DNA of 64,000 nt, from positions 105,423 through 169,422 of the IMG/VR virus record IMGVR_UViG_3300042398_000969; one strand, 5' to 3'. This stretch comes from a virus. A model generated the notes under the pieces. The model ran no database searches. It saw only the letters and a list, made by a program, of their open reading frames with translations, and was not told the origin of the DNA. The position numbers and the translations under genes were made by a program. Below are positions 8,305 through 63,780 of the stretch, one piece after another (within the stretch, counting starts at the first letter, position 1; each line of letters begins with the position of its first letter).

Positions 8305-10443
8305 TTAGAAGTCTAATCTAACAGAAAATACCTGATTTCCAATTCTTTGGATTGGTTTAGGACATTTAGCCATTACTATGGGTTCCTTATTGTCATTTAA
8401 TAAAGCCACTTCGGTAATTCTTTTTTGTTGTCCTGTAACATAAGTAGGGTTCTGTGTTGTAATAAATTGTGAAGATGGTAAGTTTACCATGAAATTTAAC
8501 ACCTGAACATCCGTTGCTCTTGTTAGTTTAATGCTACCTGGGAATGGTTGTTGATCACCAAATTGTGGCGATGTTGTTTGTGTTTTATCTGGTAAAGAAC
8601 CTAAATATGTTTCAAGATTATATGTTGACGCACCATTTACCATATCGCCGGTAACAACAAATTGGTAACCACACATATTTGTGTTAGAAATAAGATTTCC
8701 AACAGTATGGCCAGATATTTGTGATGTTAAATCAATTCGCTTCCAGTTGTTTGGTGAAGGTTGTGATCCAGTTGTTGTTACTTGAACTAACGCAAAAAAC
8801 TTATTAGCAGTAAATCCAGTAAATTGAGAAGATGAACTTAAAAATTTAAATTCACCAGTATTAAACTTGAAGCCAATATTTGAATTGGTTGATCCTGTTA
8901 TCTCACCATAATAGTTACAGTGCATGCCGGTGATACCAGTTGTTGATGTATTTTGGAACATATATGTTACCCAAGCTGTTTGTCCTGTTGTGATTACCGG
9001 ATCTAAATCATAGAAAGTTGGTAAGTCCAAAGGTACAGTACTAAATCTTGGTGCAGGTAATGTCCATTTTCTATTTGTTTTATATTCTAATGCCGCAACT
9101 AATTCTTGATCATCAAAAACAATAATTTTTTTGTCAACAAAAACTTTACCGACATTAACGCCTTGTTGATCAACTAGGTATCTAAACTTAAGGTTGTTTG
9201 AGTTTGGTTTAACGTTTAAAGCGGATGATACATAATAATCAGTTGTCCCCATAGTAAATACTGCTCCAATTGTAGAGCCTGTGTTTCTATGATATAATAA
9301 AAATGGGATATAAACTTCGAAGTATTCCGAGTCAGAAATTGGTTCTCCATATAATGTTTCGTTATCAATTGTACCATGAGCAATATAGTCATCATACTTA
9401 TAAAATCTTTCTGGATCATTTACAATATCACCTAATTCAGAATAATGAATAACAGCAATTGCTCTTTGGTTAGCTGGTTTAACATCAACTTTTTCACCAA
9501 ATGTGTTTGTATATGATGTTGGGTTAGTTATTGTACCACCAGTTGTATTTGTAAATGTTTGGCCAGTATTTGATGTATAACCAAGATATTCTTTTAATGA
9601 TGCAAATTGAGATCCAGTATAACCTGAAATATATTCATCATCATCTGTTGTGTCTAAACCAGCTGGTTCTTGTGTCCAAACTAGTTCTAATTGCCAAGGA
9701 TCATGTTGTGCTAAATTATCTGGTTGGAGTGGTGAACAAACATCAGCAACTTCGGTGTCTTGTGGGTAATCTAATTTACATTTATTACATACCACACGAA
9801 CAATTCCGGTATTTTGTGCAGAAAAATCTGGCATATTTCTATCTAAAGTGATTGTTTGCCCACTAATACTTACAATTTTATAAACTAAACTTTGTGAATT
9901 TCCGCTTATTGTCTTTTCTGAACCAACAAAATCTGATTTAAAAACTAAAGTAATATATTGACAATTTGAAAAATCATTTGTTGTTGCTCCCGTCATTAAT
10001 GATGTTAATAAATCTTTACCACCATTAACTCTATTAAGAAGTATTGCACCAGATACACATTCAACTGTTGATCCAGTACATGGATCAGCAACATATGGAA
10101 TAAATTCTGAAACAAATCCCGCTGGTCCCATTGGGTTTTTTAATGTGTCAACATATGATTGTTGTGCAGCATTACCAAAATTAATTGTCTCATTAGCATT
10201 AATTAAATATGGGTACTTAACATGTTGATCACCATCAACAGGAGATAATACTCTTTGATGTGGTGCTCTCGTGCCACCCGTTATTGCTCCTGTAAATCCA
10301 CTGAATTTTGTGTTATAGTCAAATTCAGAATCTCCGATCTGAAAATATTTTATAATAAAATTACCTTCAGCAATAGATTGTCTACCTCTTCTTGTTATTC
10401 TTGCGGATAAAAACTCTGAATTATTACTATTTAAAAAGCTCAT
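8305..10443 (-). CDS. Virion structural protein (baseplate/tail-associated)
   Basis: N-terminal ARITRRGR..YFQIGDSEFDY and C-terminal ITEVALLN..MAK..KPI resemble baseplate-anchoring domains; located at the end of the structural block. Confidence 0.6.
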   Translation of the reverse strand: MSFLNSNNSEFLSARITRRGRQSIAEGNFIIKYFQIGDSEFDYNTKFSGFTGAITGGTRAPHQRVLSPVDGDQHVKYPYLINANETINFGNAAQQSYVDTLKNPMGPAGFVSEFIPYVADPCTGSTVECVSGAILLNRVNGGKDLLTSLMTGATTNDFSNCQYITLVFKSDFVGSEKTISGNSQSLVYKIVSISGQTITLDRNMPDFSAQNTGIVRVVCNKCKLDYPQDTEVADVCSPLQPDNLAQHDPWQLELVWTQEPAGLDTTDDDEYISGYTGSQFASLKEYLGYTSNTGQTFTNTTGGTITNPTSYTNTFGEKVDVKPANQRAIAVIHYSELGDIVNDPERFYKYDDYIAHGTIDNETLYGEPISDSEYFEVYIPFLLYHRNTGSTIGAVFTMGTTDYYVSSALNVKPNSNNLKFRYLVDQQGVNVGKVFVDKKIIVFDDQELVAALEYKTNRKWTLPAPRFSTVPLDLPTFYDLDPVITTGQTAWVTYMFQNTSTTGITGMHCNYYGEITGSTNSNIGFKFNTGEFKFLSSSSQFTGFTANKFFALVQVTTTGSQPSPNNWKRIDLTSQISGHTVGNLISNTNMCGYQFVVTGDMVNGASTYNLETYLGSLPDKTQTTSPQFGDQQPFPGSIKLTRATDVQVLNFMVNLPSSQFITTQNPTYVTGQQKRITEVALLNDNKEPIVMAKCPKPIQRIGNQVFSVRLDF

Positions 10444-10460
10444 ATTTTATATCATTAATT

Positions 10461-11645
10461 TTATGTTAAACCACCACTACCACTACCACCGCCTCCGGCA
10501 CAATTTCTTAATGCTGTTGATATTATATATCCATCGGTATCAATTTGTATTGCGTTAAATTGTCCATCATTTAGTGTGTTTATATTGTCTGTTGCTACAG
10601 CATACCATAAATTAAAACCATTAAATGGTTCATAATTTGTATTCGCATACACCCTAGTATATGAAATTGCAGCAGGTAGTGTTGCTCCAGTACTGAACCA
10701 TCCTGCTGATGTCTGATAGCCAGGGCTAGAACAGAATGTATCTATAGATGATTGACCACCGCTCCTAAAATACCCATAAAGTGGTGGTGATGTTGGGGTT
10801 GGCGTTGGTGTAGCCGTTGGTGATGGAACCCCAAGACATTGAATACCAACCTCCCAGAAATCATTTACTTCATTAGGCGGAGCTAAGGCCGGAGCTGTTA
10901 ATACATCAATATAATATGTTTTAGTATTATCATATGTGATTGATAATGTTATTGGCCCCATTGCTGTTGGATACCAATAATCCTGTGAATTATATCCAGA
11001 TGAATTACCAAACCATCCCGTACTTTCAAGAACTGTTAAAGATGTTCTAATTGAAATATTATTTGGTCTATCATTTGCAGTACATGTGAAATTAATTATT
11101 GAACCATTTGCTACTCCGGCAAAGTTTAATTGAATGTCATCATAGTTGTTCATTGTTGAGCCAGTGAACGTTCCCGAAACTGTAGAACCACAACCAGGTA
11201 ATGCTGTTGGTGTTGGTGTTGCTGTCGGTGTTATTGGTGTAGCAGTTGGTGTCACCGGTGTTGCTGTCGGTGTTACTGGTGTAGCAGTTGGTGGTACTGG
11301 TGTAGCAGTTGGTGGTACTGGTGTGGCAGTTGGACCAGGACCTGCTGTTGCTGTCGGTGCTGGAGTTGCTGTAGGTGCTGGTGTTGCTGTTGGACCAGGG
11401 AACCCAGTAACTTGTATATTTTGAGTGGTACCACTACAAGCCCCAACAGGTTCTACTTTAAGCCACGTTTTACCATCAGTTATTCCTGTTATTGTATAAG
11501 TTGGGTTAAATAATGACACTGCCACATTACCATAATTTGTTAAAGCAATGCAATTGGTATTGTTACCTTCACATTCATAGAATTTAACAGATGTTATACC
11601 TAAACCTATTGTTGGACCTAATCTTACTGATGCTATATATGCCAT
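10461..11645 (-). CDS. Pro/Thr-linker virion adhesin-like protein
   Basis: N-terminal beta domain, PTATP repeats, two Cys-containing domains, Gly-rich C-terminus. Confidence 0.65.
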   Translation of the reverse strand: MAYIASVRLGPTIGLGITSVKFYECEGNNTNCIALTNYGNVAVSLFNPTYTITGITDGKTWLKVEPVGACSGTTQNIQVTGFPGPTATPAPTATPAPTATAGPGPTATPVPPTATPVPPTATPVTPTATPVTPTATPITPTATPTPTALPGCGSTVSGTFTGSTMNNYDDIQLNFAGVANGSIINFTCTANDRPNNISIRTSLTVLESTGWFGNSSGYNSQDYWYPTAMGPITLSITYDNTKTYYIDVLTAPALAPPNEVNDFWEVGIQCLGVPSPTATPTPTPTSPPLYGYFRSGGQSSIDTFCSSPGYQTSAGWFSTGATLPAAISYTRVYANTNYEPFNGFNLWYAVATDNINTLNDGQFNAIQIDTDGYIISTALRNCAGGGGSGSGGLT

Positions 11646-11649
11646 ATGT

Positions 11650-11657
11650 TATAAATA
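11650..11657 (-). promoter_or_regulatory. TATTTATA late-promoter-like motif (representative copy)
   Basis: Same coding-strand motif at 13864, 14544, 26513, 33880, 36248, 46260, 59145, 60686; TATTTATT variant at 36221, 57166, 63817; all just upstream of starts. Confidence 0.7.
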
Positions 11658-11669
11658 TTCTTATTTAAT

Positions 11670-12325: not shown

Positions 12326-13858
12326 TTAACCACTATATCCTCCGGAACCTCCTCCAGAACCTCCTCCAGAACCTCCACTGTCTGGAACTGGTGTTGCAGT
12401 TGGACTCGGTGTTGATCCATCGCAAGGTGAACATCCTGTATCTAATATAGTAAATACCGGTGTACTATAAACAACCGATTTATAGTTATCTTTTGCAATT
12501 ACCTTCCAACAGAATGTGTTTAAGAACGAATCGTTAACTCTAAACGTACCATTAATTCCAATTGTTGGTAATGTATCGGACCATACTGTTACACTATAGG
12601 ATGCATTATCACATCTCACACCATCCATTTTATATTTTTTTGGCGTTGCATTACAACTTGAACAATCACCATATCCTTGGAACATTGGTTGACCTAAAAC
12701 AAACGGTCCAGAATCTGTAATTTGATATCCATCAAAACCTTCACTTGGGTCTGTAATTACAAATTGTGGTCCTAGATTTTTATTAATGGTCATACATCTT
12801 GGATTCCCAGCAACAACGCCGTTTTCATATAATTGTATTCCATATGTTCTACCGGTGGTCATACCTAATAGCGAATATGCTATAATATTTTCACCCGTAT
12901 CACAAGTTACACCGCTATATCCAGTTATTGTGAAACCAGTAAATGGCGGGTCACAAGCAGCACAAGGATTTGCACCAGCTACTGGTGAAACACCATCTAA
13001 ATTATATGTATAACCCGTAACATATTGTGTTTGGACTGCAATGATAGATAAACATGAATTACCAACTTGATATACCGTTCCTTCTGTTAACTGTGTTGAA
13101 CTTCTTGCTATTGCCACGCCACCATAATTTTGACCAAAACCACAAGGATCTAGTGGATTTGAAAGTACGTATGATGTCGATGCTGGATTTTGCATTGATA
13201 ATGTTCCAATATTTGCTAAAGTATCACAACCAGGTATTTGTATTGGTGCACTAAATCCAGTTGCAGTTATTGCTGTATATGAATATCTCATATCATTACA
13301 GTCGCCCATTGCGTAATAATAATATGATGGATCAATAACAACATTTGTTGTTGGTGTTGGTGTTGGTGTTGATGTTGGTATCACTGTCGTTGCTGTTGGT
13401 GTAGGAGTTGCTGTTGGGTTAGGTGTTGGCGTTGGGCCAATAACAACAGTCGCTGAACCACCAGAGAAATCGCAATTAGGTGTAGGGCTAGGTGTTGGAC
13501 TAGGTGTTGGTGTTGGTGCAATATATACTGCGCTACCAACATTAGGAAAATAACAATAATTTATACAGTTATCATAAACTTCAGCCTCATTCGTATATAT
13601 ATTTTCTATAACGTAATTAACATCACCGGTATCTCCAGTATATGTTAATTTAAACCAATATTGTGTATCAAAAGATGCGTCTGTAAAAATAATAGGATTT
13701 GTGTTATAGTCTCTACTTGAACTATTAGGATACAAAGAACCATAAGACGTGTATCCTGTTGCTATAACAGAGTCATCACCAGCAGTTTTACCTGTTTTAT
13801 ATGATAAGGTAAAAGCTTTAGGTGAATTAATTCCATATAATCTTATGTTTAATCCCAT
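12326..13858 (-). CDS. Cys-rich Pro/Thr-linker virion protein
   Basis: N-terminal domain, PT linkers, NCDFSGGSATVV module, three Cys-rich repeats, (GGS)n tail. Confidence 0.65.
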   Translation of the reverse strand: MGLNIRLYGINSPKAFTLSYKTGKTAGDDSVIATGYTSYGSLYPNSSSRDYNTNPIIFTDASFDTQYWFKLTYTGDTGDVNYVIENIYTNEAEVYDNCINYCYFPNVGSAVYIAPTPTPSPTPSPTPNCDFSGGSATVVIGPTPTPNPTATPTPTATTVIPTSTPTPTPTTNVVIDPSYYYYAMGDCNDMRYSYTAITATGFSAPIQIPGCDTLANIGTLSMQNPASTSYVLSNPLDPCGFGQNYGGVAIARSSTQLTEGTVYQVGNSCLSIIAVQTQYVTGYTYNLDGVSPVAGANPCAACDPPFTGFTITGYSGVTCDTGENIIAYSLLGMTTGRTYGIQLYENGVVAGNPRCMTINKNLGPQFVITDPSEGFDGYQITDSGPFVLGQPMFQGYGDCSSCNATPKKYKMDGVRCDNASYSVTVWSDTLPTIGINGTFRVNDSFLNTFCWKVIAKDNYKSVVYSTPVFTILDTGCSPCDGSTPSPTATPVPDSGGSGGGSGGGSGGYSG

Positions 13859-13951: not shown

Positions 13952-14527
13952 TTAGACTATCACACCGCCACCACAAGTGTTATCTACATTACATTGGTTC
14001 ATTACTGACTGAGCAACACCATTTAAACCTATTTGGAACATATATCCAGAAGTGTGATAATACCAACCAGCACTTGCATAATTTGAAGGTGATGCTATAT
14101 TTTGTGTATACATAGTACCCTGTAATGATGTTAGATTATTTAAATTAGCTTCAGTTATATAGAATGTAGTATATGATTGTAAGTTATTGTAACCTGAACA
14201 CGCATTAGTACAGTCTTGGTATGGACCTTGTGCTTGCATTCCCGTTAATGCTACACCAGACTCTGTTGCTGTTGGCGTAGGTGTTGGTGTCGGAGGAGCC
14301 ACAGACCAAGACTGAGTTGTTGAGCATGTTCCAGTACTAGCTATTGTACCACCCGTTAATGTTTCAAGCGTTGTGTTTATTGTATAACCTGTTGTTAATT
14401 GTGATTTGGTAACACCAGTGGCCAACCAGTGTGCTGCTCCAGCGCTAGTTGTACCTGAAATATTAAAAGGACCAGCAACAAATGTTGCGCCTGTATAACT
14501 TGGACTTAGTGTGAATGTAATTTGCAT
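13952..14527 (-). CDS. Small two-domain Pro/Thr-linker virion protein
   Basis: N-domain AGPFN..LATGVTKSQL paralogous to 14573-18700; C-domain GWYY..FQI..G paralogous to 10461-11645. Confidence 0.65.
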   Translation of the reverse strand: MQITFTLSPSYTGATFVAGPFNISGTTSAGAAHWLATGVTKSQLTTGYTINTTLETLTGGTIASTGTCSTTQSWSVAPPTPTPTPTATESGVALTGMQAQGPYQDCTNACSGYNNLQSYTTFYITEANLNNLTSLQGTMYTQNIASPSNYASAGWYYHTSGYMFQIGLNGVAQSVMNQCNVDNTCGGGVIV

Positions 14528-14572: not shown

Positions 14573-17500
14573 TTATACTTGTGCACCACCGCCGCCACCA
14601 AGACAATCATTACATGATGTCCATACACTTGAATATGATCCATCCGTTAAATGTGTCGCCTCTTGATCACATGTAGTACCAACATAATAATCTACTTGTA
14701 AGCACACATTATTTACTTTAACAGCTTTAGTTCCACCTAAGAATGCACTAACCAATAAATCTGGTGATGTCATATATCCAACTAGATTATTTGAACAATT
14801 AATTACTTGATATTTGTAATATGATGCTGGTTCAGGTATCGCTGTTATACCACTGTTTACCACACAACCATTTGCGTCTGTAACCTCTAAACAATACCCA
14901 TATGTTGTTAAATTATCTACATTGAATGTTGTACCAAAAGTTGATGTGCTATATGTTCCAACTAAAGTTCCACCACATGTTGTATATGGTGAACTTGTGT
15001 CAGCATATAATCTATATGTTTTAGGGAATACACCACCACTTGATGTTAATTCTAAAACACCTGAGCTTGGTGAAGCACATGTTGGGTATGTAATAATTGT
15101 TAACGACGCAGATTGTGCCGTTGGTTGGCTAATTCCTTGACCATATGATGCCACACAATTATTACCATCTTTAACAGATATTGTATACGTATCTGATATT
15201 AAATTATTAAATATCTTTGGAGGATAATAATAATTGTAACCATCAATTGAAACTTGTCTAGGTGATGTTCCGCCAACTAATGTTGTCACTTCAATAAAAC
15301 CATTTGAACCACCATAACAAGAAACATTACCAACATCCACTATTCCAAGCGCTGGTGTAGATACTGTTAAGTTATATGATACAATTGCAAAACAACTATT
15401 ATTATCTAAAACTTGTATTGAATGATTACCACTTGGTAAGTTATTAAAAGTATGTGAAAATTTAAATGCTGTTAACGCTGAATATGAACCACCATTACTA
15501 CTAATACAAAATTTATATCCTGAAGCATTTGGTGTTCCACCGCTACCCTGAATTGTTAATGATCCATTTGTTGAATTGTAACAAGTTGGAAAAGATGCAC
15601 TAGTAATAGTGCCAGCCACCGCTGACGGTATAGTTACGGTTGCTGAATATGATTGTTCACAACCGGCACCATCTTTAATAAAAATACTATATGTACCGCC
15701 ACCTAATGATGAATAAGTTACTGGTAAGTTTGCATATGTTCCACCAGAGCCAAGTTTTGCTTGATAACCAGACCCAGATCCTCCAGATCCACTAGAAACA
15801 CCAATGGTGCCTGTTCCCGCATTACAATCTGGATTTGTAACAGATATTGTTGCATTCGGAGCTGATTTGGATAATAACACATAATCTATGGCCACACAAC
15901 CATTACTGTCTTTAGCATATAAAGTATATAATCCTGTACCTAAACTACTAAAAGTTCCGCTGGCTTGATAATTTGAACCATCTCTTGAATATGTAAAACC
16001 ACCCACACCGCCTGAACCTGAAGCTGTTATTGAACCATTTGTACCATTCCAACATGTTGGATTTGTACCAGATACTGATATAGATACCGCACTTGGTTGT
16101 GTTACTGTTTGATTATATGTTTGAACACAACCCGCGCCGTCTTTAATATATATTGTGTATGTTCCCGCAGATAATGGGTTGGAGTATGTAACTGGTAAAT
16201 TTGCATAAGTTCCACCTACTCCGTTTTTAGCTTGGTATCCTGAACCACTTCCTCCAGTTCCATCACTAACCGTGATTGCACCTGTTCCACCACCATTACA
16301 AGCTACATTTGTAATTGAAAAAGTTGCATTAGGTGCTGATTTAGATAAAGTTGTTGCCGCTGAAGTTACACAGTCATTTGCATCCTTAATATAAATTGTT
16401 TTAGTCCCAACGGTTTGCCCAGTAAATGTTGCACTAGATTGATATGTTAAACCATCTGAAGAATATGTGTATGGTGATGTACCACCTGTAGGAGATGCTG
16501 TAACGCTACCATCACTACCATTATAACATGTTGGATTTGTTGATGAAGATATTGAACCAAAAAGTTGTGTTGGCTCTGTTATTGTTACAGAATATGTTCT
16601 AGAACAAGCAGATTGATCAATAACAGTTACTGTGTATGTTCCAGCAGTTGGTACACCAAACGTTGCTGGTAAATTCTGATATTGAAATGCACCATAATTT
16701 ACTTTTGCTTGATATGTTCCACCGTTACCACCACTACCATTTGAAATTGTTATTGAACCGCCTCCATTTTGATAACATGGTAAATTTGTTTGTGAAATAG
16801 TTGCACTTACTTGTGTTTTATTTAAACCGGTTGTATTTGTTCTAATACATCCACTAGCATCTTTAACATATGTGGTATATGTACCATTTGTTAAACCTGT
16901 AAATGTTAAACCAGATTGATAATTTGAACCATCTATTGAATATGTATATGGCGAAACACCACCACTTACACTAGATAATGTTATTGAACCGTTTGAATTA
17001 CCATTACAAGTTGGTTCTGTACCTGTAGCAGTGAAACTAATAATTGCAGGTTCTGTTATCGTTAATGATGTTAATTGACCAACTTCATTATTTGAATCTT
17101 TAACATATAATGAATATGTTTGTGCTGTTAAACCTGTAAATACGTTACTTGATTGATAGGTAGTACCATTTATTGAATATGTATAACTACCTGAACCACC
17201 ACTTGGACTAGTTATTGTTATTGTACCATTAGATCCTCCATTACATGTAACATTTGTTGAAGATCTAGATGCTGTTATAACAACATTGGTTATATTGATA
17301 GTTATAACCACATCAAAATATAAACCTAAAGCATCAGTTGATCTAACTTTAATTAGATATGTACTTTTTGTTTCATAATCAAATACTACTTTAGATTTTA
17401 AAACATTTCCAGCAATAGTAAAACTAGTATAATCTGGATATGATGAAGTATCTACAAATGAATATGTAAAAGTATCACCCGCATCAGGATCTGCTGTTGA

Positions 17501-18700
17501 AAAAGTACCAATTGTTGTACCAGTTGCAACATTTTCAGATATTGAAGATGATGATAAATCAATTCCTGTTGGAGCCTCATTAACACTAGTTACGGTAACT
17601 GAAACAAGACCATCATATGTTAATCCACCAGCATCTGTTGTTCTTATATTTAATAGATACGAACTTTTTGTTTCAACATCGAAAACTTCTTTTGATGTTA
17701 ATTGACCGCCAGAACTTAAATTAAAACTATTATTGTCTGGATATGAACCAGTATTAACAAATGAATATGTAAATGTATCACCGGCATCTGGATCTAACGT
17801 TGATAGTGTACCAGCGTTTGTACCAATTCCACTATTCTCAGGTATTGTGCCAGATATGCTAATACCAAATGGTGCTTCATTTACGTTATCAATATAAATT
17901 GTAAATTGTTTATCAAAGAATTGACCAACACTATCGGTAGTACGAATTGCCACTGTATATGAAGTTCCTGTTTCATAGTTAAATAATATTGAGTTAACTA
18001 AAGTATTACCACTAGTAGTGAAAGGTGCAGAATTTACTATAGAATATGTATGGGCATCATTACTATCACTTGACGCTGTTGCTAAATAACCAATCACCGT
18101 ACCAATAGCTGAATTTTCGTTTATTCTATCATAACTTAATGAAAGATCTGTTGGTGCATAATTAACTGTTGTATCAATTAAAAATAAACAATTAGGTGTT
18201 GAAGTTGGACTCGGTGTTGGCGTCGCTGTTGATGTCGGTGATGGTGTTGGTGTAGGTGTGGCGGTTGAACTCGGTGTTGGAGTTGGTGTTGCTGTTATAA
18301 TATTTGTATCTATTCCAAAATCACAATTAGGTGTTGGAGTAGGACTAGGTGTAGGACTAGGACTTGGAGTTGGACTTGGAGTTGGACTTGGTGATGGACT
18401 TGGAGTTGGTGTTGGACTCGTTGTTGGAGTTGGTGTAGGTAATATAGTTTCATCAATATTTGATTGACATTCTGCAATAACCCTAGCATTTGTATTGTAT
18501 ACAATTATTTTAGTTGCACTATCTGGTACACTAACGTGTAAACCTAAATTTGATATTAATTCAGTGCGTGTAACACCACTAGCAAGAAATGATGTATCAA
18601 AATTGGTTGCAAGATTTGCAGCGTTAACTTGGTCATAATAAACATTATAAGGACCCGCGTCAGTACCAGAAACAATCTTTACATAAAACTTCTTTGCCAT
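14573..18700 (-). CDS. Large adhesin-like protein: N-domain, PT linkers, 3 cadherin-like repeats, ~10 SprB-like repeats
   Basis: Cadherin signatures ENxxxGT, DPDAGD, DYET, VNEAP; repeats TNxTCxGxSNGxITx..GGxxPYTYS..YxxYVKDxxxC. Confidence 0.8.
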
Positions 18701-20733: not shown

Positions 20734-23700
20734 TTAAGGACACGCACCAAGATAACATGCAACACTTAGAGTTATTGTATCACCACTATTAATTACCACT
20801 CCAGTTATTTGTGGGAATGGATTAGATGTGAAATATGATGTATATGATGGACTTGTTGATCCATTTTTATATATGAAAATCACACCACAATTTCCGTTAC
20901 CTGGTAAATTGGTTGTAACATTACATTGGATTGTATTTGTTGATCCATAATTAATACCACCAGGATTTGTTTTACCACCAGCTAGTGTTGATGTTAATGG
21001 GAATGTAGATGGCCCATTTAATGTGTTCATAAATGTACCATTAATACCAACATCATTTAACGTCCCATTACCACAATCATTGTTTCTAACCGTCCAAATT
21101 GATGTTGGTGGATTAGTTGCTGTTGGTGTTGGTGTTGGTGTTGAAAACGAAATATCAACACAGAAATCATCAGCTGCTGTTGGTGTAGGTGTTGCTGTTG
21201 GCGTTTGAGTAGGTGTTGCTGTTGGTGGCACCGGAGTCGCTGTTGGACTTGGGGTTGGTGTTGGAGTCCTAGTAGGTGTTGGTGTAGGAGTTCTAGTTGG
21301 TGTAGGTGTAGGTGTTTGTGTAGGAGTTGGTGGCGGTGTTACTATTGGATATGACCCCACACAAGTATATGCCGCAGCACCGGTACAAACATTTGAATAA
21401 TTTCTTAGTAAAGATCCTATTGATGGTACTGTTGTACAAGCAATATTATCAGTGTAATATTGTTGCATTGATGAACCAATAACCTCAAAACCAACATATT
21501 CATGTTCTACTAAAGCTAAATAATTAGAATTACCATTAAAGGTTATTAAATTTGTTGGTTTAGTTCCTGCTACATTTATGTTATAATACATATTAATGTT
21601 ACAGTAATTTAAATCAACGGCGGTTACTTCAATTAGTTCTCCTTTCTCTGTTATAATATAATCACCAGTGTCATAATAATCAGATGGATAATCACAACAT
21701 GGCTCTATTGGTGTTTCTGGTTTTATTTGTAAAAATTCTGGTGATCTTGTATCAAAAACATAACCACTTCTTTTTGTGACCTTGCCCGTATTTTCGTTAA
21801 CATCTTTATTTGTATAGATTCTAAATTTAGTTGTTGGTAAAACATCAAAAACAACTGTTGTACCACTATTTGTAACACCACTAATTACACTAGTTTTAAC
21901 GGAACCTAGTGAATCCATATCATGTATTGTGTATGTTGTATATGTGTATGAAAAAGAATAATTGTTTGTTGATTCAGCAAAATCAAACGCACTACTTGAT
22001 AGTGATGAGCATGAAAGATAATTTGCGGATACAACTACATTTCCATTAGAAAGATCTTTAACAGATCTCTTTACTAAAGTACCTGCAGTAATATAATTTT
22101 GTATATCAGCCGATGTTGTTGAACTATTAATTGTTGCGCCGCTTACTACTAAAACTTTGGTATCATGTTTTAAACCATAATTGTATGAATTTCTATATTG
22201 AACCCTTGGATGTATAGTAAAACCAGTATTAACAACAATTGGTTGATCCGGTACTTCTGTTGGAAATTCAACATATTGTAAATTCAAACCATCAATTCTC
22301 ACTTTTTTATCACAGTTAGCCGCATCAGTAAATAATAAATCTATAACCTCATCTTCATACACGTTTGATATTTTAAATTGACATGTATTCCCGCTAACTT
22401 GTGCAAAGGTTGTATCGGTGTATACTGGGTTATATCCAGAAAATGCATTTATAACCGGTATTGAGTTTCTTTGTACATAAATTCCCCAACCATATGTTTC
22501 ACCAGATTGGACAGTAGCACCAGTAATATTAACAATAATATCAGATTTTAATTTACATGCGGTAGATCCAGTATAAACTGGGTGTAAAACACCATCTGGA
22601 CAAACTGTTGTGAATTCTAAATCTAAACTACATTTTGGTAATGAATAGTTATAATCAGCATCAAAATAAAAATCTAAATATCTTTTTTCTGAACAGTCTG
22701 AATTGCTATGTGCAATAAATTTAACCTTTTCAATACCATCATTATCAGTAAAAAATTCATAAGATATTAATTGTGTATAACCAGAACAGTTAACGCCACA
22801 ACCGTATGTTACACCACTATATGGTGATACACTTGGTAAGTGACCAGCAACCGGATCGTTATATGTTGAATTAATTTTATTAACTAAGTTAATAACAGCT
22901 GTTCTCCAAAGCGTTTTTGTTGTTGAAGTATTTAATTTAATCCAATTTTTATAATCACAAATTAAAGGTATGCTTGTCGATGAACTACTTAAAACACTGC
23001 AACTATTTGTTGCGGTATAACCAGTATCAAATAATGTACTCCCAGTTATTTTAACTTGTGATGTTGTTCCACTATATTCAACACCGTCAACATCCATCTT
23101 TAATGTGAATGTTACACCAGTAAGATACATTAAACCCCTAAGATGATCTGGTTCACCAACAATGGTTTCCACATCTTCTTCAATAAAGGTTTCAAAGTCT
23201 GGATAAAGATTTTCAACTATCTCAATTGGTTTACATGGTTTTCTGTATGCATATTTAGGTCTTGCAAATATATTATTTTCAATTAAGTTACCACCCATCC
23301 ATAATGTTGTTGATGGAATAACTTGTTCTAACACATTTGACCAATATGGGCTCATTTGATTTACGAAATCAGTTGAGTCAATCATATCATATGGTGTATA
23401 TCCTGAAGATATTAATTGATTAATATAATCTTGATAAACATCTTCTAGATGAATATAATTTTTTTTGTATTTTACTACATTTGAATTTATAACTTGTTTA
23501 GAAAACGTCATCTCAAGGTACTCAGCAAAACTGGTTTGATCTTGAACCTCTAAACTATTTTTTCCGAAAACAACTTCTAGCTCTCTAGATTTTCTCCAAA
23601 TATCATAGTTACTTGCATTAGCTGGGCTAACAAAGACGCTAATATTTTTTCTATTTAATATTAAACCGGTACCAGTTAGATCATCAACAACTTGACTTTT

Positions 23701-26525: not shown

Positions 26526-27467
26526 TTATTGTTTTTTCACCAAGAAAAATCCATTTCCGTAGATATCTAATTCACCTATATTATCAATTTCACCTAATCT
26601 TAGGTTAAATTCTGCTACACCCAATTTTCCTCTTTCAACAAAAATATCAGAATACACCAACGGTTCAGAAACAAAACCAAGATAATGTTCATTTCTGGTT
26701 AATTTTTTAGTGAATTGACTTTCAGATGCAAAAGTTGCTGTGTTGCCAGTAATATAGGTAGTTCCATCTGATAAATCAAGGTAAGTTAGTCCATCAATTT
26801 CGTATTTATCACAATTGTATGATGTTCCCTCAATTGTGATTGTTGTTCCAGTAACACCACTATATGTGCTACCACCATATAATTTTTTTTCAATTTTTCT
26901 ACTTTTACCTAAAGCTAAAAATGTTGTTGTTCCAGTAAAAGAATTTCCAGAATAATCATAATTGTTATTATAATTCTGAGTTCTACCAGATTGTAGATAG
27001 GTTTCACCACTAACATTAAAATATGGTAATGTTGTACCTGTATATGTGAAAGTCGCTAAATTAGTGGGATTGTTGGTGGTTAACGGTAATTTAATTTGTT
27101 TTGTCACCGTTTCTGTTTTCCATGATGCTACCATGGTGATAGAAACATTTTTAAAACCTGGTGTTGAATATGTTTTTGTTTTTCCACTCAATATACTAAT
27201 AGCTTCTGCTGGTGATCCATCACCCCAATTAATTGTGAATGTGGCGTCAATAATTCTTTTTAATTTTATATTACTAGCTGAGTTATATACTGTAAGGGTG
27301 TTTCCAGTATTGGCGGAATAAACAAAATTGCATAATTGTTCTGCTTGTTCAATATCACCATCAAAACCAACCATAACACCCAACTCATCAGCTTTTGCTT
27401 CTAAAAATAATGGTAGGTTATATGTTAAACCGGTTTTTCTTAATATTTCGTATTTTAACTTTTTCAT
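26526..27467 (-). CDS. Putative virion protein with a PKD-like domain
   Basis: INWGDGS..KTYSTPG..VSI PKD signature. Confidence 0.6.
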   Translation of the reverse strand: MKKLKYEILRKTGLTYNLPLFLEAKADELGVMVGFDGDIEQAEQLCNFVYSANTGNTLTVYNSASNIKLKRIIDATFTINWGDGSPAEAISILSGKTKTYSTPGFKNVSITMVASWKTETVTKQIKLPLTTNNPTNLATFTYTGTTLPYFNVSGETYLQSGRTQNYNNNYDYSGNSFTGTTTFLALGKSRKIEKKLYGGSTYSGVTGTTITIEGTSYNCDKYEIDGLTYLDLSDGTTYITGNTATFASESQFTKKLTRNEHYLGFVSEPLVYSDIFVERGKLGVAEFNLRLGEIDNIGELDIYGNGFFLVKKQ

Positions 27468-46279: not shown

Positions 46280-49200
46280 CTATTTTCTAATGTTTAGTCT
46301 AAAATAGACCACATCTCCTTCATTTAGTTTTAATTTTTTCATAAGCTTAGCAGACATTGCTATTCCGTATTGACTAGCTTTACTGTCTGTTATTGATGGG
46401 CCATTGTGTACGGGGCCGTCAAATCTTCCAGTTGATGGGTTAACATCTGTTGTTAACTTGTAAGTCAAACGTAAGCTAGGGTTATAAAACTCAGTATCAT
46501 ATTTGAAAATTTCTTCTTTGTTGTTATTCAAAACCATTCTAACTGCATAATAATCATAAAGACTATCTTTAATGTCGGTATATTTCTTAATGACATTTGG
46601 ATATGCTTTCCATCCGCTAACTAACTCTAATTCACCTGTTGGATCATACTTTGATCCGCCAAATAAAACTACTCTAGTTCTAAGCCAGAATTCACCCTTA
46701 GCTGGTTCAATATATTGAATATACTTTTCTGTTCCGCTGCCCACCTTGGCACCATTATATGGAATCATATCATATAACAATCCAGATTGATTAACTATGA
46801 TTTTTGATAAATCTTCATTACCTACAGCAGATCCTGGATCAATACTAAAGCTTTGTTTATCTTTTGTTGTTATTGTTCTTTCCGTTGTAACACCTGGGTT
46901 AGTTTGTTGTTTCTTCTTAACCGCCGATGATAGTAATCTACTAAACAATGGTCTATAGCTAGACATAAATGTGCTGTCTAATGAAGGTAAGCTACTGTTT
47001 GAAATTCTGACGCCAGTAAATGATGTTTCAAACTGTCCAGCTTTTATAGAATGACTAACATCAAATATTAAGTATGTACCATTAAACATGGGGACATTAG
47101 CTAGATAGAAGTACATTGTTGGTTGTAACATAACATTACCCATACAAGTTACACTACATTGATATGACGCAGTTTTGTAAATGTCAAATAAACCAATATC
47201 AACAGAATGTGATCCACCACCACCTTGTGATCTGGCTAATCTTTCTTGTGCAAGTGCACTTTCTGTTGTATTTTTATAAGTGCTTTGATCTAATGATATA
47301 CTTTTAAAAACTCCTTGTGCTTGATCACCAAAATTAACTTCAAATGAAACAACCCTATTTGAATTAGCAGTATCGGTTTCCATGAATATTCTTGGTTCAA
47401 CAATTAAAGGATTGTTATTTGTGTCTTTAATATCAAAGCTATCGCTTTTAAATTTATATTCTTTGTTAACTCTAGACATATCCAAATATTGTGATGTCTT
47501 GTTAATGTATTGTAAAATAATTTTTGGTGAAGATTCTTGATAATCCACATCTAAAAATGTACCAAATAAATTTCTGGCTAAATTCTTAGACGGTATTATT
47601 CTTTTCTTGTTACTTGTATTTGTTCCGTAAAAATTAATGTAAGCCGGTAAAGGTCTCATATCAAAATTAGTACCTTGAATTAAAGTTGATATTGCGCTAT
47701 ATAAATCTATCTTGGCGTTTCTTTCGTTACCCAATGAAATAAGTCTCTCTAAACTAATATAAGACGTTTTACCAATATCTCTATTTGCTCTATCTAAAAA
47801 TAAAAACTCATCCATTAAATGTCTTTGACCAATAGCATTACCTGCTATCCATTTGTCATTAAATGATTTAAAGTATTGATATAAATCTAGCTTTGTTGTC
47901 TTCGCCTCATTATAACCATGATATATGGTGATTTTTTCTTTCTTTTTTTCTTGTGCTAAATTTTTAAATTTCTTTATAAAATTTTGTAAAAAAATTGAAA
48001 GCCTATTGTCTTGTGGATCAAATATATTTGTTTTTACATATAATTTAAATTCATTATAATTTGGAACAAATAAGTTATCTTTTGTTTTATTATCTTTAAC
48101 CCAACCAGCATATATTCTAGCCAATTCTCTGTGCGAGTATATATTTTCTTCAGTTACCTCAATGTTACTTACTTGGAAAAAGTTTTCATATAGGTTTGTT
48201 ATACCACTATATGTTGTACCAGTTATATTTTGACCAATATATAATTTTATTAAGTCTTTTGTTCCTGGAGTGTACACACCGCCAATTGTTGAGCCAGTTG
48301 TTAGTTGTGAAACATCATATTTGTTTGGTAAATATGATTTTGAATTACCAACAAACCCATTAATTATATAATCATCAATTTGTTTTGGGTTACCAATAAC
48401 TAATTTTCTTAAATTTTTATTATCTAACATGCTTTTTGTCAAAGCTTCTAGTTTTGTTTTTTGTGCATCAATAACCTTTTCTCTGGCACCATCAACTGCT
48501 AGGTTAATACCCGTTTTTTCTATACTACATATTTCTTTTAATATTTCTTGAAAAGAAGTATAATCGTGGGTACTACCTTTTAAGGAGTCAACATCTAAAT
48601 CTAAAGATGAGTACTCTAAAAACATAGACTCGAACTCATCCAATAATTTTGGACTGAAAGTGGCAATTAAATCAATTACTTTTTTCTTATTACCTGTTAA
48701 TGAAAATAAGTTTCTAGTTGTTTTGAACATTTCATCAGGTCCTGGGAAGTATAAAACATTATATGTTGGATGTTTAGTTAAATCGCTATCGTCCAATATA
48801 ATTCTAAAAGAATCCTGTAATAGACTTGGAAAACTATCAACTATATTGCTAATTTTTGATGCGCCATTAGATGGTAAAATTGTATACCTATTATCTGTAG
48901 CTTTAAACCTTGAATTATCCACTAAAGATGTTAATGTGAATCCACTTTTGCTTGTTGGTTTCTCTAAAATATATTTTGTAATTCCAGTTGCAACTGCACT
49001 ATTATATTGTGAACTTGCGTTAACAGCTGTTGCACTTGTTTTTGTAAATCCAGATGGGTTATAAAAACTATACCCATTTACTATTTGATGGAATATACCA
49101 TGATAATATGGATAAACCCCAACATAAGAATTTGATGAATATGTGACAGCACTCATTGATGGGGTAACGGCACTAAGATTAAACGGTACGTTTGTCCCGT

Positions 49201-52069
49201 TGTCAAAAAACGTTGATCCATTTATTGAAACAGTAACCCCACTTAAAATGTCAACACCTTCTTTAAGGTATTTTTTATATCTATGATATATCGCACCCCA
49301 TTTTAACATTAAGTAATATGGAACATAGTGTGTTGCTGCAACCTCTTTAAATAAAGATGACATAAGAACCTTATTACCATCAAATTCAATAACATCGTCC
49401 AGATCTTTATATGGCAAAGAATTTAATAAAATGTAAGCAGAACCAACATATCTTTCAGAAACACCTCCCTTGAAGAAGTCATTAAATAATTGTTTGTGAA
49501 AGTATGGTGTGTTTAATAAGTTTCTTGTTTGGCCACTAAGTGTTATTTTTTGACTAAATATATTTTTAGTATATGCACTTAATATCCAGGATTCTGAATT
49601 AATAGGTGAACTAATGAAATTGTCATTCTGATTTACCTTAAAGATATTCGTGAACTTATAATCATTAGTATTTAAAACCTTATTACCAAGATATGATTGA
49701 TATAACTCTGAATTAAATGGAAACTCTTTTAATCTATATGGATCAATTTTATAATCGTCAAGAGCAGCTTGTAATTTTGTATATGTTGTATCGGTAGTGC
49801 TACCTGAAACAACATTATTATATTCTACAATATCAAAATCTCTATCAACAAATTCTTTTATATACTCAACTGTTGGTAACCTATCTTGATAATATGGATA
49901 CCTTTCTCTCTGTGAATATGAATACATAAAATTAACTAAAGTTTGTGTACTCTTAACTTGTTGATTTAACACCTCTCTAACATCAATATCACTTTCAATT
50001 GCGCTATCTAATGTTTCAAATTCTTTAGCGCAAATTTCATCTAATCCTTTATCATATATAAAATTACTATATGATGTTATATATTGTGCTCTTTCAAATA
50101 TTTCATAAAATATAGATGCTAATGATTTATCAGTATATGGATATTTTTCACCAATTTTAAATAAAGTACTTACATTTCTAACTTCTCTTTTTTCGTCCTT
50201 ACCATCAAATACAAACATTAAATCTGATGGGAATATTTCTTTACCGCTTTCAGCATCAACTCGTTTGGTTGCTACACTGTTATATGTTTCAATAAACTCA
50301 ACTTCTGGCCAAAGTGAAAAATTATTACCTTGCGTTGTTTTTATAACTTCAGTATCTGCTGGATAATAGTGTGTATATGATTCTTTGTTACCCTTTTTCT
50401 TAACTTCTGGCCAAGGATATATAACTTCATTTTTATTATTGCTGATTTCGCCAACGATTGCTTCTTTTCTAAAATTAGATCTTTGAATTGCTTTTCTATG
50501 CACATCCTGCATTAATCTAATATAAGTGTCAGCATTGGCCAAAATAACAGCAAAAATGTTTCTTATTGTTGGGTCAAAACCAAATCCATTGTCATTATTT
50601 CTAATAACCTCATTCATTTTAGCTTCAACAGCTTTTTCAACATTGTCTCTACTTTTAATGAATGCGTTTTGTATATCTTTAATTCTTTGTATTAATTTTT
50701 CATTAGCAACACCAAACTTACCACCTTCTGTTGTATAAAAATCTTTTATATTTCTTATTGAATCTAATGATATTGTTTTTGTTTTAATTTCTTTTTTGTT
50801 TTCAATTTTTTTACCAAACGCCAAATTGTTTTCTAAATCAGCAATACCTTTATCTATAATACTTTTTAATGAAAGGTTATTTGTTGTTCCAGTAATAATA
50901 TCCGCGCTTGCAGCTCCGTTTGATGTTTGTGTTCTATCATTTGTTACTTTATTTAAAGCATAATAAATAACATCACCATCTTCTTTAACAGTATCAGTGG
51001 AATTTAAATATCTATTACCCCATGATATAATTCTTTTTTCTAGGTTATCTAACACTTTATCATATTCTGCCACATCACTTAAAACATTTGGATTAACAGT
51101 TTCTGAAAACAATGTTGATTCAATTATACTTTCTAAGCCGCTGGCTGTCATTAAAAGTTCTCTAAGTGTTTTAACCGGAAAATCTTTGTCGATATATCCC
51201 TTTGCTTTATAATCAGAATAAACCGATTTTAAAATAGAATAACCCTTTGTAGTTTTAGATATTTTCTTTTCTACAAATCCTGTCTTGGGATTTGTTTTAT
51301 ATGGCTCAGTTGATTCAACCATATACATATATGGTGCATTAACAATGTTCTGAAGTAATATGTCATTTAGAAAAGCGTATGTTGAACCAACAAATTTTGT
51401 TGATATTTCAAAGTTACCGGTGTTACCATTAAATCTGGTTTTAAAATCAACAAGTTGTATTCTATATCTAATAGCTTTACCATAATACCCTTTAACCGTT
51501 AAATAAAATATTGGCCAAGGTTGGTGAAAAAACGCTTTATATGGAGAATTCTCTGGTGAGTCAAATAATGTTTTACCTCTTACATCAATAAAGTTAATTG
51601 ATACTTGCGGTATATTACTAGCACCCTTAACAACAATATTAATACTTTCAATTCCAAATGTCTGAGCAGTTGGATCGTAGCTTTTTGCTCTATTTAAATT
51701 AGTTCCCGCAAATGCATTTACCACAGCATTTATTGCATCTTGCTTTGATGATATTGGAACAAACGTTTCGGTCCAGTTTGTATCAAAGTTGTTTTGAAAC
51801 TCATCTTTATCACCCTGGTTTCTCATCATATTAAATGTACCAGATGCTAATGATGTTAATGTACTTTTTTCGGATTCAGAATAAAGAACACTTCTGGGAA
51901 CTAAATCAGCTTCCAAATTAACATACATAACTAGATTCTCATGATCAACCAATCTACTTTGTAACTGACCATCTTGATCCAATACTGTATTAGGGTCAAC
52001 GTGAACTACATTCTGTTGATCGACTACTACAAGTATGTTTTCATTCTGACTTATTTTATTATTCCCCAT
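46280..52069 (-). CDS. Giant baseplate hub-like protein
   Basis: 1929 aa; N-terminal FGIESI.I..PQV.I.F.DVRG and late V.CMGN.MLQP..YF...PMFNG.Y.I..V.H.I...F.T.F.G.R resemble gp27/gpD-type hub strands; follows TMP and LysM-like genes. Confidence 0.65.
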   Translation of the reverse strand: MGNNKISQNENILVVVDQQNVVHVDPNTVLDQDGQLQSRLVDHENLVMYVNLEADLVPRSVLYSESEKSTLTSLASGTFNMMRNQGDKDEFQNNFDTNWTETFVPISSKQDAINAVVNAFAGTNLNRAKSYDPTAQTFGIESINIVVKGASNIPQVSINFIDVRGKTLFDSPENSPYKAFFHQPWPIFYLTVKGYYGKAIRYRIQLVDFKTRFNGNTGNFEISTKFVGSTYAFLNDILLQNIVNAPYMYMVESTEPYKTNPKTGFVEKKISKTTKGYSILKSVYSDYKAKGYIDKDFPVKTLRELLMTASGLESIIESTLFSETVNPNVLSDVAEYDKVLDNLEKRIISWGNRYLNSTDTVKEDGDVIYYALNKVTNDRTQTSNGAASADIITGTTNNLSLKSIIDKGIADLENNLAFGKKIENKKEIKTKTISLDSIRNIKDFYTTEGGKFGVANEKLIQRIKDIQNAFIKSRDNVEKAVEAKMNEVIRNNDNGFGFDPTIRNIFAVILANADTYIRLMQDVHRKAIQRSNFRKEAIVGEISNNKNEVIYPWPEVKKKGNKESYTHYYPADTEVIKTTQGNNFSLWPEVEFIETYNSVATKRVDAESGKEIFPSDLMFVFDGKDEKREVRNVSTLFKIGEKYPYTDKSLASIFYEIFERAQYITSYSNFIYDKGLDEICAKEFETLDSAIESDIDVREVLNQQVKSTQTLVNFMYSYSQRERYPYYQDRLPTVEYIKEFVDRDFDIVEYNNVVSGSTTDTTYTKLQAALDDYKIDPYRLKEFPFNSELYQSYLGNKVLNTNDYKFTNIFKVNQNDNFISSPINSESWILSAYTKNIFSQKITLSGQTRNLLNTPYFHKQLFNDFFKGGVSERYVGSAYILLNSLPYKDLDDVIEFDGNKVLMSSLFKEVAATHYVPYYLMLKWGAIYHRYKKYLKEGVDILSGVTVSINGSTFFDNGTNVPFNLSAVTPSMSAVTYSSNSYVGVYPYYHGIFHQIVNGYSFYNPSGFTKTSATAVNASSQYNSAVATGITKYILEKPTSKSGFTLTSLVDNSRFKATDNRYTILPSNGASKISNIVDSFPSLLQDSFRIILDDSDLTKHPTYNVLYFPGPDEMFKTTRNLFSLTGNKKKVIDLIATFSPKLLDEFESMFLEYSSLDLDVDSLKGSTHDYTSFQEILKEICSIEKTGINLAVDGAREKVIDAQKTKLEALTKSMLDNKNLRKLVIGNPKQIDDYIINGFVGNSKSYLPNKYDVSQLTTGSTIGGVYTPGTKDLIKLYIGQNITGTTYSGITNLYENFFQVSNIEVTEENIYSHRELARIYAGWVKDNKTKDNLFVPNYNEFKLYVKTNIFDPQDNRLSIFLQNFIKKFKNLAQEKKKEKITIYHGYNEAKTTKLDLYQYFKSFNDKWIAGNAIGQRHLMDEFLFLDRANRDIGKTSYISLERLISLGNERNAKIDLYSAISTLIQGTNFDMRPLPAYINFYGTNTSNKKRIIPSKNLARNLFGTFLDVDYQESSPKIILQYINKTSQYLDMSRVNKEYKFKSDSFDIKDTNNNPLIVEPRIFMETDTANSNRVVSFEVNFGDQAQGVFKSISLDQSTYKNTTESALAQERLARSQGGGGSHSVDIGLFDIYKTASYQCSVTCMGNVMLQPTMYFYLANVPMFNGTYLIFDVSHSIKAGQFETSFTGVRISNSSLPSLDSTFMSSYRPLFSRLLSSAVKKKQQTNPGVTTERTITTKDKQSFSIDPGSAVGNEDLSKIIVNQSGLLYDMIPYNGAKVGSGTEKYIQYIEPAKGEFWLRTRVVLFGGSKYDPTGELELVSGWKAYPNVIKKYTDIKDSLYDYYAVRMVLNNNKEEIFKYDTEFYNPSLRLTYKLTTDVNPSTGRFDGPVHNGPSITDSKASQYGIAMSAKLMKKLKLNEGDVVYFRLNIRK

Positions 52070-60649: not shown

Positions 60650-60765
60650 TGTTTTTGTATTATGTTTTTGTGTTTATTTCTTTCCTATAAATATATCAAT
60701 ATGTGAAATAAAATTTATTTACCGAAATACTTGATTTTCTCGTTTTTTTTCGTTAGCTTTTTGCT

Positions 60766-60887
60766 ACTAACTTACTAAAATACTAATATACTAATACTAC
60801 TAATATACTAATGTACTAATATTCTTGTATTCTATTGTTCTAATATTCTTTTATTCTAATAATTCTAATTTACTGATATTCAATATA
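60766..60887. repeat. Degenerate 8-bp tandem array (~15 copies of WCTAATAT)
   Basis: actaactt actaaaat actaatat actaatact actaatat actaatgt actaatat tcttgtat tctattgt tctaatat ... actgatat. Confidence 0.85.
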
Positions 60888-60890
60888 ATA

Positions 60891-60925
60891 AATAAAAATG
60901 GGGAGGTTTTTAGCCGTCCCCATTT
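60891..60925 (-). terminator. Intrinsic terminator after the sheath gene
   Basis: AAATGGGGA...TCCCCATTT stem followed by a T-rich tail. Confidence 0.75.
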
Positions 60926-60942
60926 CTATTTCTATTGTAATA

Positions 60943-63780: not shown

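Follow-up and report, generated by a model that had tools for sequence, protein, structure and literature searches.

The question raised by this locus is why one short amino-acid pattern, [S/T]-G-x-T (Ser or Thr at position 0, Gly at +1, a free residue x at +2 and Thr at +3), recurs through many tail proteins of a single phage. The window, by which the whole 64,000-nucleotide stretch analysed is meant (positions 105,423 to 169,422 of IMG/VR virus record IMGVR_UViG_3300042398_000969), is the last 64 kb of a single viral contig of 169,422 bp. Its GC content is ~32%, and all of its large open reading frames (ORFs) lie on the minus strand. An earlier note on this DNA had counted the motif by hand and proposed that a phage-encoded cytoplasmic transferase decorates exposed virion surfaces at it. 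The observation itself was confirmed and is stronger and wider than that note could have shown. The motif is confined to tail, baseplate and fibre proteins, so that "virion-wide" was too broad a description. As the best single explanation we tentatively propose, at somewhat less than even probability and from sequence patterns, that [S/T]-G-x-T would be a sequon-like recognition site for a trans-acting enzyme that modifies Ser or Thr.

Thr at +3 was scored after every [ST]G dipeptide, and the fraction of dipeptides so followed is given below as P. Pooled over 12 tail-module ORFs, Thr was present at +3 in 109/238 cases (46%; Thr frequency 0.109; binomial p ~7e-42). The enrichment was found at +3 alone (0.46 vs 0.07–0.14 across offsets -4 to +7) and after both S-G (0.42) and T-G (0.49), with N, D, G, A and other residues before Gly giving ~0.1. 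Ser was not preferred at +3 in the same 12 ORFs (16 Ser vs 109 Thr), and the remaining 28 window ORFs gave 9/73 (0.12). None of 500 global shuffles matched the observed count in any of 26526-27467, 8305-10443, 28298-30049, 20734-25587, 46280-52069 and the sheath, and the observed counts were also above those of local 20-residue block shuffles and the conditional local-Thr expectation; enrichment over shuffles, a check that the earlier note had proposed, is real. Its hand counts for these proteins were exact on recount from the translations (in the same order, 10/11 with SGNS as the eleventh, 14/24, 13/20, 19/33, 10/23 and 9/18), and its description of x as free and of Thr as strongly preferred at +3 held, Pro alone being excluded at x. 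Its statement that the gp6-like wedge has no site must be corrected for ORF 57191-59140 (one site, SGET at residue 521), as must the same statement for the conserved C-terminal core of the sheath, where site 647 lies inside the region aligning with other T4-like sheaths. The tail tube carried no motif, and none of the ORFs examined on the contig fragment was recognisable as a capsid gene. In an unbiased scan of all gapped tri-residue patterns, SG.T and TG.T were the strongest dispersed patterns (z = 12.4 each); the sole higher scores came from the repeats of (PT)n linkers and from a small NC.F repeat.

A statistical or compositional artefact could in principle produce such a pattern, through richness in Thr, Ser and Gly, through collagen-like G-x-T repeats or repeated domains, or through a word at the DNA level. 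The proteins are Thr-rich (8–18%) and some have repeats, and in one related complete phage genome (G028, 361 kb) the apparent richness arises because collagen-like (GxT)n arrays inflate the DNA-level motif count. Controls refuted this account, which we regard as extremely improbable. Composition and local T-richness were ruled out by the conditional statistics and the local shuffles, and equally S/T/G-rich proteins of the same genome, such as the giant proteins upstream, were not enriched (e.g. genome 29200-34329, 8/94). A DNA-level word or codon artefact was excluded, since the motif-encoding word occurred 59 times in frame and 1–3 times per other frame where present at all, and since the preference for ACT/AGT belongs to an NNT-before-GGN bias that is a general codon-pair effect across the genome. 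One shared repeated domain was likewise ruled out: the context around the sites is not conserved, and most of the proteins have no Pfam or PHROG family. A neighbour at +/-3, that is, a period-3 tandem context, was found for 8/182 motif sites in G000 and for 0–6 in the other genomes, fewer than 5% of sites in all downloaded genomes, and the uninterrupted period-3 Gly of collagen-like G-x-y repeats does not characterise the motif sites. Thr is O-glycosylated in BclA-type GPT repeats, and collagen-like (G-x-T)n sequence, known also from phage fibres, shares its G-x-T units with the present motif, one short period-3 run being found in 28298-30049; it differs in that >95% of sites here are isolated tetrads, with no Gly enrichment at -2. 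The long arrays of G028 are of the T-G-P-T-G-A-T type and lie at 12-2744 and 182611-182952 of that genome.

Enrichment was common to the 27 IMG/VR relatives of the 583-residue protein 28298-30049 (50–84% identity), mostly at P = 0.3–0.65, with 77/119 in one of them (L024). Sheaths at least 70% identical to that of the window retained P ~0.44, and a basal lineage, the P0181 family with G014 (sheath ~40% identical, GC 27%), was strongly enriched (717/2055 over 23 loci; 34/65, 21/35 and 14/19 in single proteins). Background values were obtained for the tail modules of Mel-JY01 (17/285, P = 0.06), T4 (11/169, 0.065) and Flavobacterium phage immuto (41/278, 0.15), and for the whole proteomes of G004 and G005 (both complete), of G008, and of G019 and G020 (both complete, P = 0.09); over T4, Mel-JY01, the Flavobacterium phage and the five related complete or near-complete jumbo genomes the range was 6–15%. 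Enrichment is therefore not a property of the tail-protein folds. On a sheath tree of 148 representatives the trait was clustered yet patchy (19 changes vs 32 with shuffled labels). One genome (G016, P0122 family) was motif-poor near the sheath and rich in other proteins, so the motif-carrying proteins differ between lineages, and scoring of richness from the sheath alone was rejected as unreliable. P0140 had no IMG/VR relatives. A calibrated DNA-pattern proxy, which separates rich genomes (0.36–0.59 hits/kb) from poor ones (0.09–0.22 hits/kb), was run on 42 genomes in which the presence of the glycosyltransferase GT-X (see below) was also scored; 12 genomes of the clade were scored in full. 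The group is very abundant: in IMG/VR the sheath has >5,000 homologues (E <= 1e-20), and GT-X has at least 532 matches.

Sites were followed through an alignment of 24 sequences of the 583-residue family. Three sites were invariant and a fourth was kept in 23/24, with x varying freely (SGNT/SGAT/SGST/SGTT). At other aligned positions lineages had switched between NGYP and SGKT, SADT and SGDT, or TYGT and TGIT, and many sites alternated between the full motif and unrelated turn-like tetrads, for which two or three coordinated substitutions are required. The invariant sites with free x, the coordinated switches and the near-total use of the motif in some homologues (15/19, 27/33) argue for selection on the tetrad. 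Shared ancestry, which the earlier note had set aside as an explanation, does not account for the motif, as orthologues in sister clades lack it and sites are gained and lost at aligned positions. A logo built from 297 sites of three divergent genomes read hydrophobic(-1)-[S=T]-G-{not P}-T-[Y/F/I]; Ser and Thr shared position 0 evenly. Hydrophobic residues made up 60% of position -1 (33% background), where V, I, Y, F and L dominated and Asp was found at 6/297 sites (0.32x background), and 44% of +4, where Y/F/I were favoured; Pro was absent from x (0/297), and K/E were depleted around the sites.

Structural context was read from AlphaFold2 models. The model of the 313-residue protein 26526-27467 was poor (predicted local distance difference test, pLDDT, 46), with one site, T54-G-N-T57, in its confident part, where it forms a tight beta-hairpin between strands 42-53 and 57-64. 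The sheath model was confident (pLDDT 85.8; predicted template modelling score 0.81), and DSSP assignment on it placed site 126 inside a strand, 139 before a helix, 148, 189 and 647 after helices, 215 and 285 after strands, 277 in an inter-strand loop and 583 at a bridge. The nine sites thus span at least five secondary-structure contexts, including helix N-cap and loops, as do non-motif [ST]G sites; they share no one local context of the kind expected of a single turn motif, and a single structural role is unlikely given this variety. Burial as ordinary beta-turns had been named in the earlier note as an outcome that would tell against its reading; as to turns, the sites in the confident sheath model were not of one turn kind. 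Domains I and II of T4 gp18 form the outer tail surface, and by analogy sheath residues 126-288, which hold 7/9 sites, would lie on the outer surface of the tail. In a G014 protein (137304-138587, L267) residues 205-240 consist of nine head-to-tail SGxT units of period 4, with one more unit before them; here the whole tetrad has been amplified as a low-complexity linker. This tract and short T-rich linker runs cannot be hairpins, which argues for a linear motif rather than one structural element, and on these sequences and models [S/T]-G-x-T looks like a linear recognition motif.

The proposed mechanism is as follows. Hydrophobic-[S/T]-G-x-T-hydrophobic, with x never Pro, would be held by selection on proteins exposed on the tail, baseplate and fibres in a large group of uncultured aquatic T4-like jumbo phages. 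A trans-acting enzyme, probably an O-glycosyltransferase, would modify the Ser or Thr of the motif in the cytoplasm, before or during tail assembly, and the best candidate for this writer would be GT-X, a GT4-type enzyme of the GT-B fold. The pattern has the general attributes of a sequon (short consensus, hydroxyl acceptor, one free position), and the proteins enriched in it belong to the tail, baseplate and fibres, the sheath carrying it mainly in its insertion domains. Three elements of this scheme are inferred: reading of the motif by an enzyme, a glycan as the modification, and GT-X as the writer. The full proposal, in which GT-X, a conserved phage GT-B enzyme, would attach O-glycans at this extended motif, within the cytoplasm, to the exposed surfaces of tail, baseplate and fibres, is doubtful, and we give it a low probability.

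GT-X was found by gene-family profiling of six rich against four poor genomes, which gave 11 rich-only families, present in every rich lineage and missing from the poor genomes. Three of these are motif-rich structural proteins; GT-X is the sole glycosyltransferase among the 11, the other recognisable enzymes all being of nucleic-acid type (RuvC-like, PD-(D/E)XK, SNF2). It was classed as GT-B, GT4-type, from the G014 orthologue (39.9 bits; PF00534 cut-off 26.4); the G001 orthologue scores under the Pfam cut-off and matches PHROG 7162 ("glycosyltransferase") at 8e-42. The GT-X hidden Markov model had no other match in ten proteomes, even at E <= 10. In the closest relative, G001 (sheath 94% identical), GT-X (94093-95322) lies 13.5 kb past the sheath, where the G000 and G002 contigs stop, within a cluster (88.9–95.3 kb) of GT-X, a 205-residue protein, a PhoH-like 242-residue protein, a 210-residue protein, a 356-residue GT-B, a GT2 and a sigma-like 232-residue protein. 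Contig ends account for the lack of GT-X in G000, G002 and G003, and GT-X of the window genome is predicted to lie ~13 kb past the window end, off the contig. The four poor genomes all belong to one sister clade, so this first contrast amounts to a single evolutionary event. A second, nested contrast was found in the P0174 clade, where the complete, motif-poor G019 and G020, placed in the rich clade because they retain clade-specific genes, lack GT-X alone and keep its sigma, GT2 and 356-residue GT-B neighbours. Among genomes at least 80% complete, 5/5 GT-X-negative ones were motif-poor and seven GT-X-positive ones were rich, and no rich genome lacked GT-X. On present data GT-X would be necessary, not sufficient, for motif richness. 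Apparent in-frame stops in GT-X of G040-G042 proved to be the natural stop codons.

A search of the rest of the genome for glycosyltransferases and sugar genes, another check put forward in the earlier note, found many on the contig: two GT1/GT4, two or three GT2 and two GT7-like enzymes (one fused to a ConA-like lectin domain), together with an NAD-dependent sugar epimerase/dehydratase, three Methyltransf_24 proteins, about nine radical-SAM enzymes, of which two bear SPASM domains, an Asp/Asn hydroxylase, and sulfotransferase-like, 2-oxoglutarate (2OG) oxygenase and SGNH genes. No contig glycosyltransferase or radical-SAM enzyme tracked the motif. Homologues in motif-poor genomes led to rejection of the GT1 pair, the GT2s, the radical-SAM/SPASM cluster, the methyltransferase, SGNH, sulfotransferase-like and 2OG-oxygenase proteins as writer. 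Of the idea of a phage transferase acting on exposed surfaces, the location held, the motif being concentrated in exposed proteins of tail, baseplate and fibres; as regards the enzyme, no transferase on the contig follows the motif, and GT-X, off the contig, fits in part. The two GT7-like genes are adjacent (genome 59014-61847), and one of them (genome 60420-61847), Glyco_transf_7N + 7C fused to Laminin_G_3, is kept in 45 IMG/VR contigs; its catalytic-plus-lectin layout recalls polypeptide GalNAc-transferases. It was rejected as writer on its homologues (55%, 40% and 40% identical) in motif-poor G004, G005 and G008 and on its flanks (P = 0.08, vs 0.22 for the flanks of 80 GT-X loci). Also rejected were a DUF2827 glycosyltransferase (present in G014 alone among 15 genomes), a 241-residue protein beside the glycosyltransferase block (missing from distant rich genomes), a RuvC-like 200-residue neighbour of the 712-residue protein (still present in poor G019 and G020) and a 414-residue TacA1-like protein, which tracks the motif but is fast-evolving and regulator-like. 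The last stands in a block found in the motif-rich clade only (genome 101013-103372) with a 97-residue ORF and a sigma-70-like gene; the 414-residue protein and the 97-residue ORF are both lost in the nested poor G019 and G020.

Several points weigh against a modifying enzyme as the reader of the motif, the whole case for it being made of sequence statistics. Hydrophobic residues at -1 and +4, Gly and beta-branched Thr are also expected of a strand-turn-strand element; the only confidently modelled site of the PKD-like domain forms a tight hairpin; and O-glycosylation sequons do not, to our knowledge, usually insist on Thr rather than Ser at +3 while taking the two equally at position 0. Giant Ser/Thr-rich fibres beside tailoring islands, which are obvious glycosylation targets, are not motif-enriched. 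The main rival is accordingly a structural dialect of the lineage, a strand-end, turn or cap element (for instance a hairpin with a two-residue Gly-x turn, in which Ser/Thr and Thr would pair across the strands on the exposed side) that the beta-rich surface domains of the clade would use over and over and that folding or stability would keep; we consider it possible, though on balance unlikely. The hydrophobic flanks, the obligatory Gly, the exclusion of Pro at x and the depletion of charged residues all suit such an element, as do the choice at +3 of Thr, with its high beta propensity, over Ser, the hairpin with strands 42-53/57-64, and the 6/9 sheath sites at which S/T closes a strand or helix and Gly starts a loop. 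Orthologous or analogous beta-rich tail proteins of T4, Mel-JY01, immuto, G004, G005, G008, G019 and G020 are nevertheless at or near background, which argues against any general preference; N-G, D-G and G-G turns of the same proteins lack Thr at +3; the sheath sites occupy the same range of contexts as non-motif [ST]G; and hairpins cannot account for all of the tandem tracts, (SGxT)x9 and TGITGNTGITGFT.

The assignment of GT-X as writer meets objections of its own. The clade G024-G029 (three genomes at least 93% complete) has an intact-looking GT-X and no dispersed enrichment, G024 and G029 being poor. Absence of GT-X, forecast beforehand for three of nine further long contigs, failed 3/3 (GT-X was present), and the link rests on about two independent evolutionary contrasts. 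No GT-X residue separates the versions of rich genomes from those of poor ones, and resemblance to known enzymes (PglA, BshA) is limited to the nucleotide-sugar half, PDB profiles matching the C-terminal half only, so that the acceptor could equally be DNA, lipid or polysaccharide. GT-X also adjoins dUTPase- and PhoH-like genes, and DNA glycosylation is a live alternative for its role; phage glycosyltransferases are well documented as DNA hypermodifiers (PMC13326640; bioRxiv 10.1101/2023.12.21.572611). The motif might then have another reader, on the host side a cytoplasmic enzyme (glycosyltransferase, kinase or another modifier of Ser/Thr), on the phage side an assembly chaperone or decoration protein, or else a ligand from the environment to which the tail surface binds, with a merely phylogenetic correlation of GT-X, which would serve DNA or polysaccharide. 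We judge such a reader quite improbable. The clade G024-G029 and the nucleotide-metabolism-type genes next to GT-X fit it, the TacA1-like 414-residue protein, which tracks the motif at least equally well, illustrates how easily phylogeny yields such correlations, and SprB/cadherin domains with low GC fit a Bacteroidota host with enzymes of its own. It is still without a candidate host enzyme or binding partner, however; a short motif scattered over many unrelated proteins, 10–30 times in each, is typically an enzyme sequon and not a protein-protein interface; and GT-X alone was lost from a conserved cluster in the nested poor clade.

A sequon-like site written by a cytoplasmic phage enzyme can be set beside known systems. 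Bacteroidota general O-glycosylation likewise uses a short sequon on many unrelated surface proteins, in the probable host phylum of this phage, but the sequon is different (D-[S/T]-[A/I/L/V/M/T]), with Asp required before the acceptor, where it is depleted here. That system is periplasmic and acts on exported proteins; phage tails assemble in the cytoplasm. No oligosaccharyltransferase was found here, although no search aimed at one was made. GtfA/GtfB of serine-rich-repeat adhesins and the autotransporter heptosyltransferases Aah/TibC are cytoplasmic GT-B protein O-glycosyltransferases. Like the enzyme proposed here, they act on numerous Ser/Thr of beta-rich surface proteins ahead of export or assembly; their kinship to GT-X is limited to the generic GT4 donor-binding half, Aah/TibC are described as recognising a short strand-loop-strand element rather than a strict sequence, and we know of no [ST]GxT consensus reported for any of them. 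Glycosylation of chlorovirus PBCV-1 is N-linked on Asn, in a eukaryotic virus. According to a review, its major capsid protein is glycosylated at non-canonical sequons by virus-encoded enzymes (PMC9614988). The system resembles the present proposal in its virus-encoded cytoplasmic machinery and atypical short sequon with x-T, and differs from it in linkage, host domain and target, which is capsid rather than tail. Virion glycosylation of mycobacteriophages has reportedly been described by Freeman et al. 2023 in Cell Host Microbe. As summarised in PMC12619734, the glycans are at the C-termini of capsid and tail-tube subunits. There, too, phage glycosyltransferases decorate virion proteins in the cytoplasm, with a shielding role proposed; in this phage, unlike those, the tube has no motif, and the sites follow a four-residue consensus and lie scattered within the proteins of tail, baseplate and fibres. 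The "moraphage" of PMC12619734 was rejected as this lineage, that paper concerning another one.

If the motif is a sequon, it would provide a readable code for tail decoration sites, making glycan shielding, adhesion or stabilisation predictable from sequence in abundant uncultured aquatic jumbo phages, and a portable tag-and-enzyme pair for engineering. If GT-X is its writer, this would be the first sequence-defined sequon in phage virion glycosylation, with sites gained and lost like viral glycan shields. If the motif is structural instead, a four-residue element with ~5-fold lineage-specific enrichment over unrelated proteins would still be unusual and a useful clade marker.

Motif-bearing proteins of the window are listed in the table. 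The 712-residue family was found in motif-rich lineages only (66/113 summed over six genomes); it is missing from the nested poor G019 and G020 and was undetected in G024 and G026-G029. Homologues of the 1617-residue protein gave 27/33 in L024, 4/18 in G019 and 17/58 in total for the partial ones of G024 and G026-G029. In the 313-residue family the motif took up 10/11, 11/12, 9/9 and 15/19 of the [ST]G dipeptides.

Table. Proteins of the window that carry [S/T]-G-x-T; counts are motif sites per [ST]G dipeptide.
Protein	Coordinates	Strand	Motif/[ST]G	Remarks
712-residue tail/baseplate-region protein	8305..10443	-	14/24	no Pfam or PHROG match
394-residue protein	10461..11645	-	4/11	weak (29/500 shuffles reached count); two (PT/PA)n linkers
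510-residue protein	12326..13858	-	7/19	one PT linker
191-residue protein	13952..14527	-	5/10	
1375-residue fibre/adhesin-like protein	14573..18700	-	11/43	weakly enriched; PF13573 3e-40, PF00028 6e-17
1617-residue protein	20734..25587	-	19/33	
313-residue protein, PKD-like beta-sandwich	26526..27467	-	10/11	densest case; 11th = SGNS
275-residue protein	27469..28296	-	2/3	L024 homologue 7/9
583-residue protein	28298..30049	-	13/20	includes period-3 run TGITGNTGITGFT (STGITGNTGITGFT run)
1274-residue protein	30049..33873	-	5/24	weak enrichment
1929-residue baseplate-region protein, putative "hub"	46280..52069	-	10/23	no PHROG match
contractile tail sheath, 945 residues	60943..63780	-	9/18	7 within residues 126-288 (insertion domains); PF04984, PF17482

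The sheath was assigned to the T4 contractile type on its two Pfam domains and gp18-like homology; tblastn matched annotated sheaths of Mel-JY01, immuto and cyanophages, and named phages are all distant (34% sheath identity to Mel-JY01, 38% to Flavobacterium phage immuto over the C-terminal third). The window further encodes the tube, several large proteins without a Pfam or PHROG family, and, among replication and nucleotide genes, a ribonucleotide reductase small subunit and gp32-like, ClpP-like, primase-like and PD-(D/E)XK proteins. The contig ends 220 bp past the sheath gene (window 63780-64000) and holds only about half of the source genome. The longest closely related contigs are 251 kb at an estimated completeness of 75%, from which the window was taken to be a fragment of a jumbo phage of ~330 kb. 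The fibre-like protein 14573-18700 contains four SprB repeats and two cadherin domains, both characteristic of the adhesins that Bacteroidota use in gliding motility. Together with the low GC this suggests a Bacteroidota host, and the sequence fits that phylum as the probable one; the domains point to capture from the host phylum.

Long low-complexity (PT/PS/PA)n linkers were seen in six tail-module proteins (10461-11645, 12326-13858, 13952-14527, 14573-18700, 18988-20712 and 20734-25587). PT linkers are classic O-glycosylation targets of secreted bacterial proteins, and those of the tail module could be a second substrate class. ORF 18988-20712 has nine PT-type linkers with short spacers between them and, between the linkers, five copies of an N-C-x-F (NCDF-like) motif, which suggests that a small module containing Cys is repeated there. 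Genome 7834-8937 encodes a 367-residue protein of the thymidylate-synthase family with a ~100-residue insertion; the family includes the phage dCMP/dUMP hydroxymethylases, and given this gene the DNA may be hypermodified, in which case some of the glycosyltransferases may act on DNA. At genome 48153-59017 about eight radical-SAM genes stand in tandem, two of them with N-terminal SPASM, beside an Asp/Asn beta-hydroxylase and a DUF6734 gene, and a ninth radical-SAM gene lies at 23226-24227; radical-SAM homologues are also present in motif-poor relatives. Phages do not usually have such a cluster, which suggests chemistry for the tailoring of peptides or sugars.

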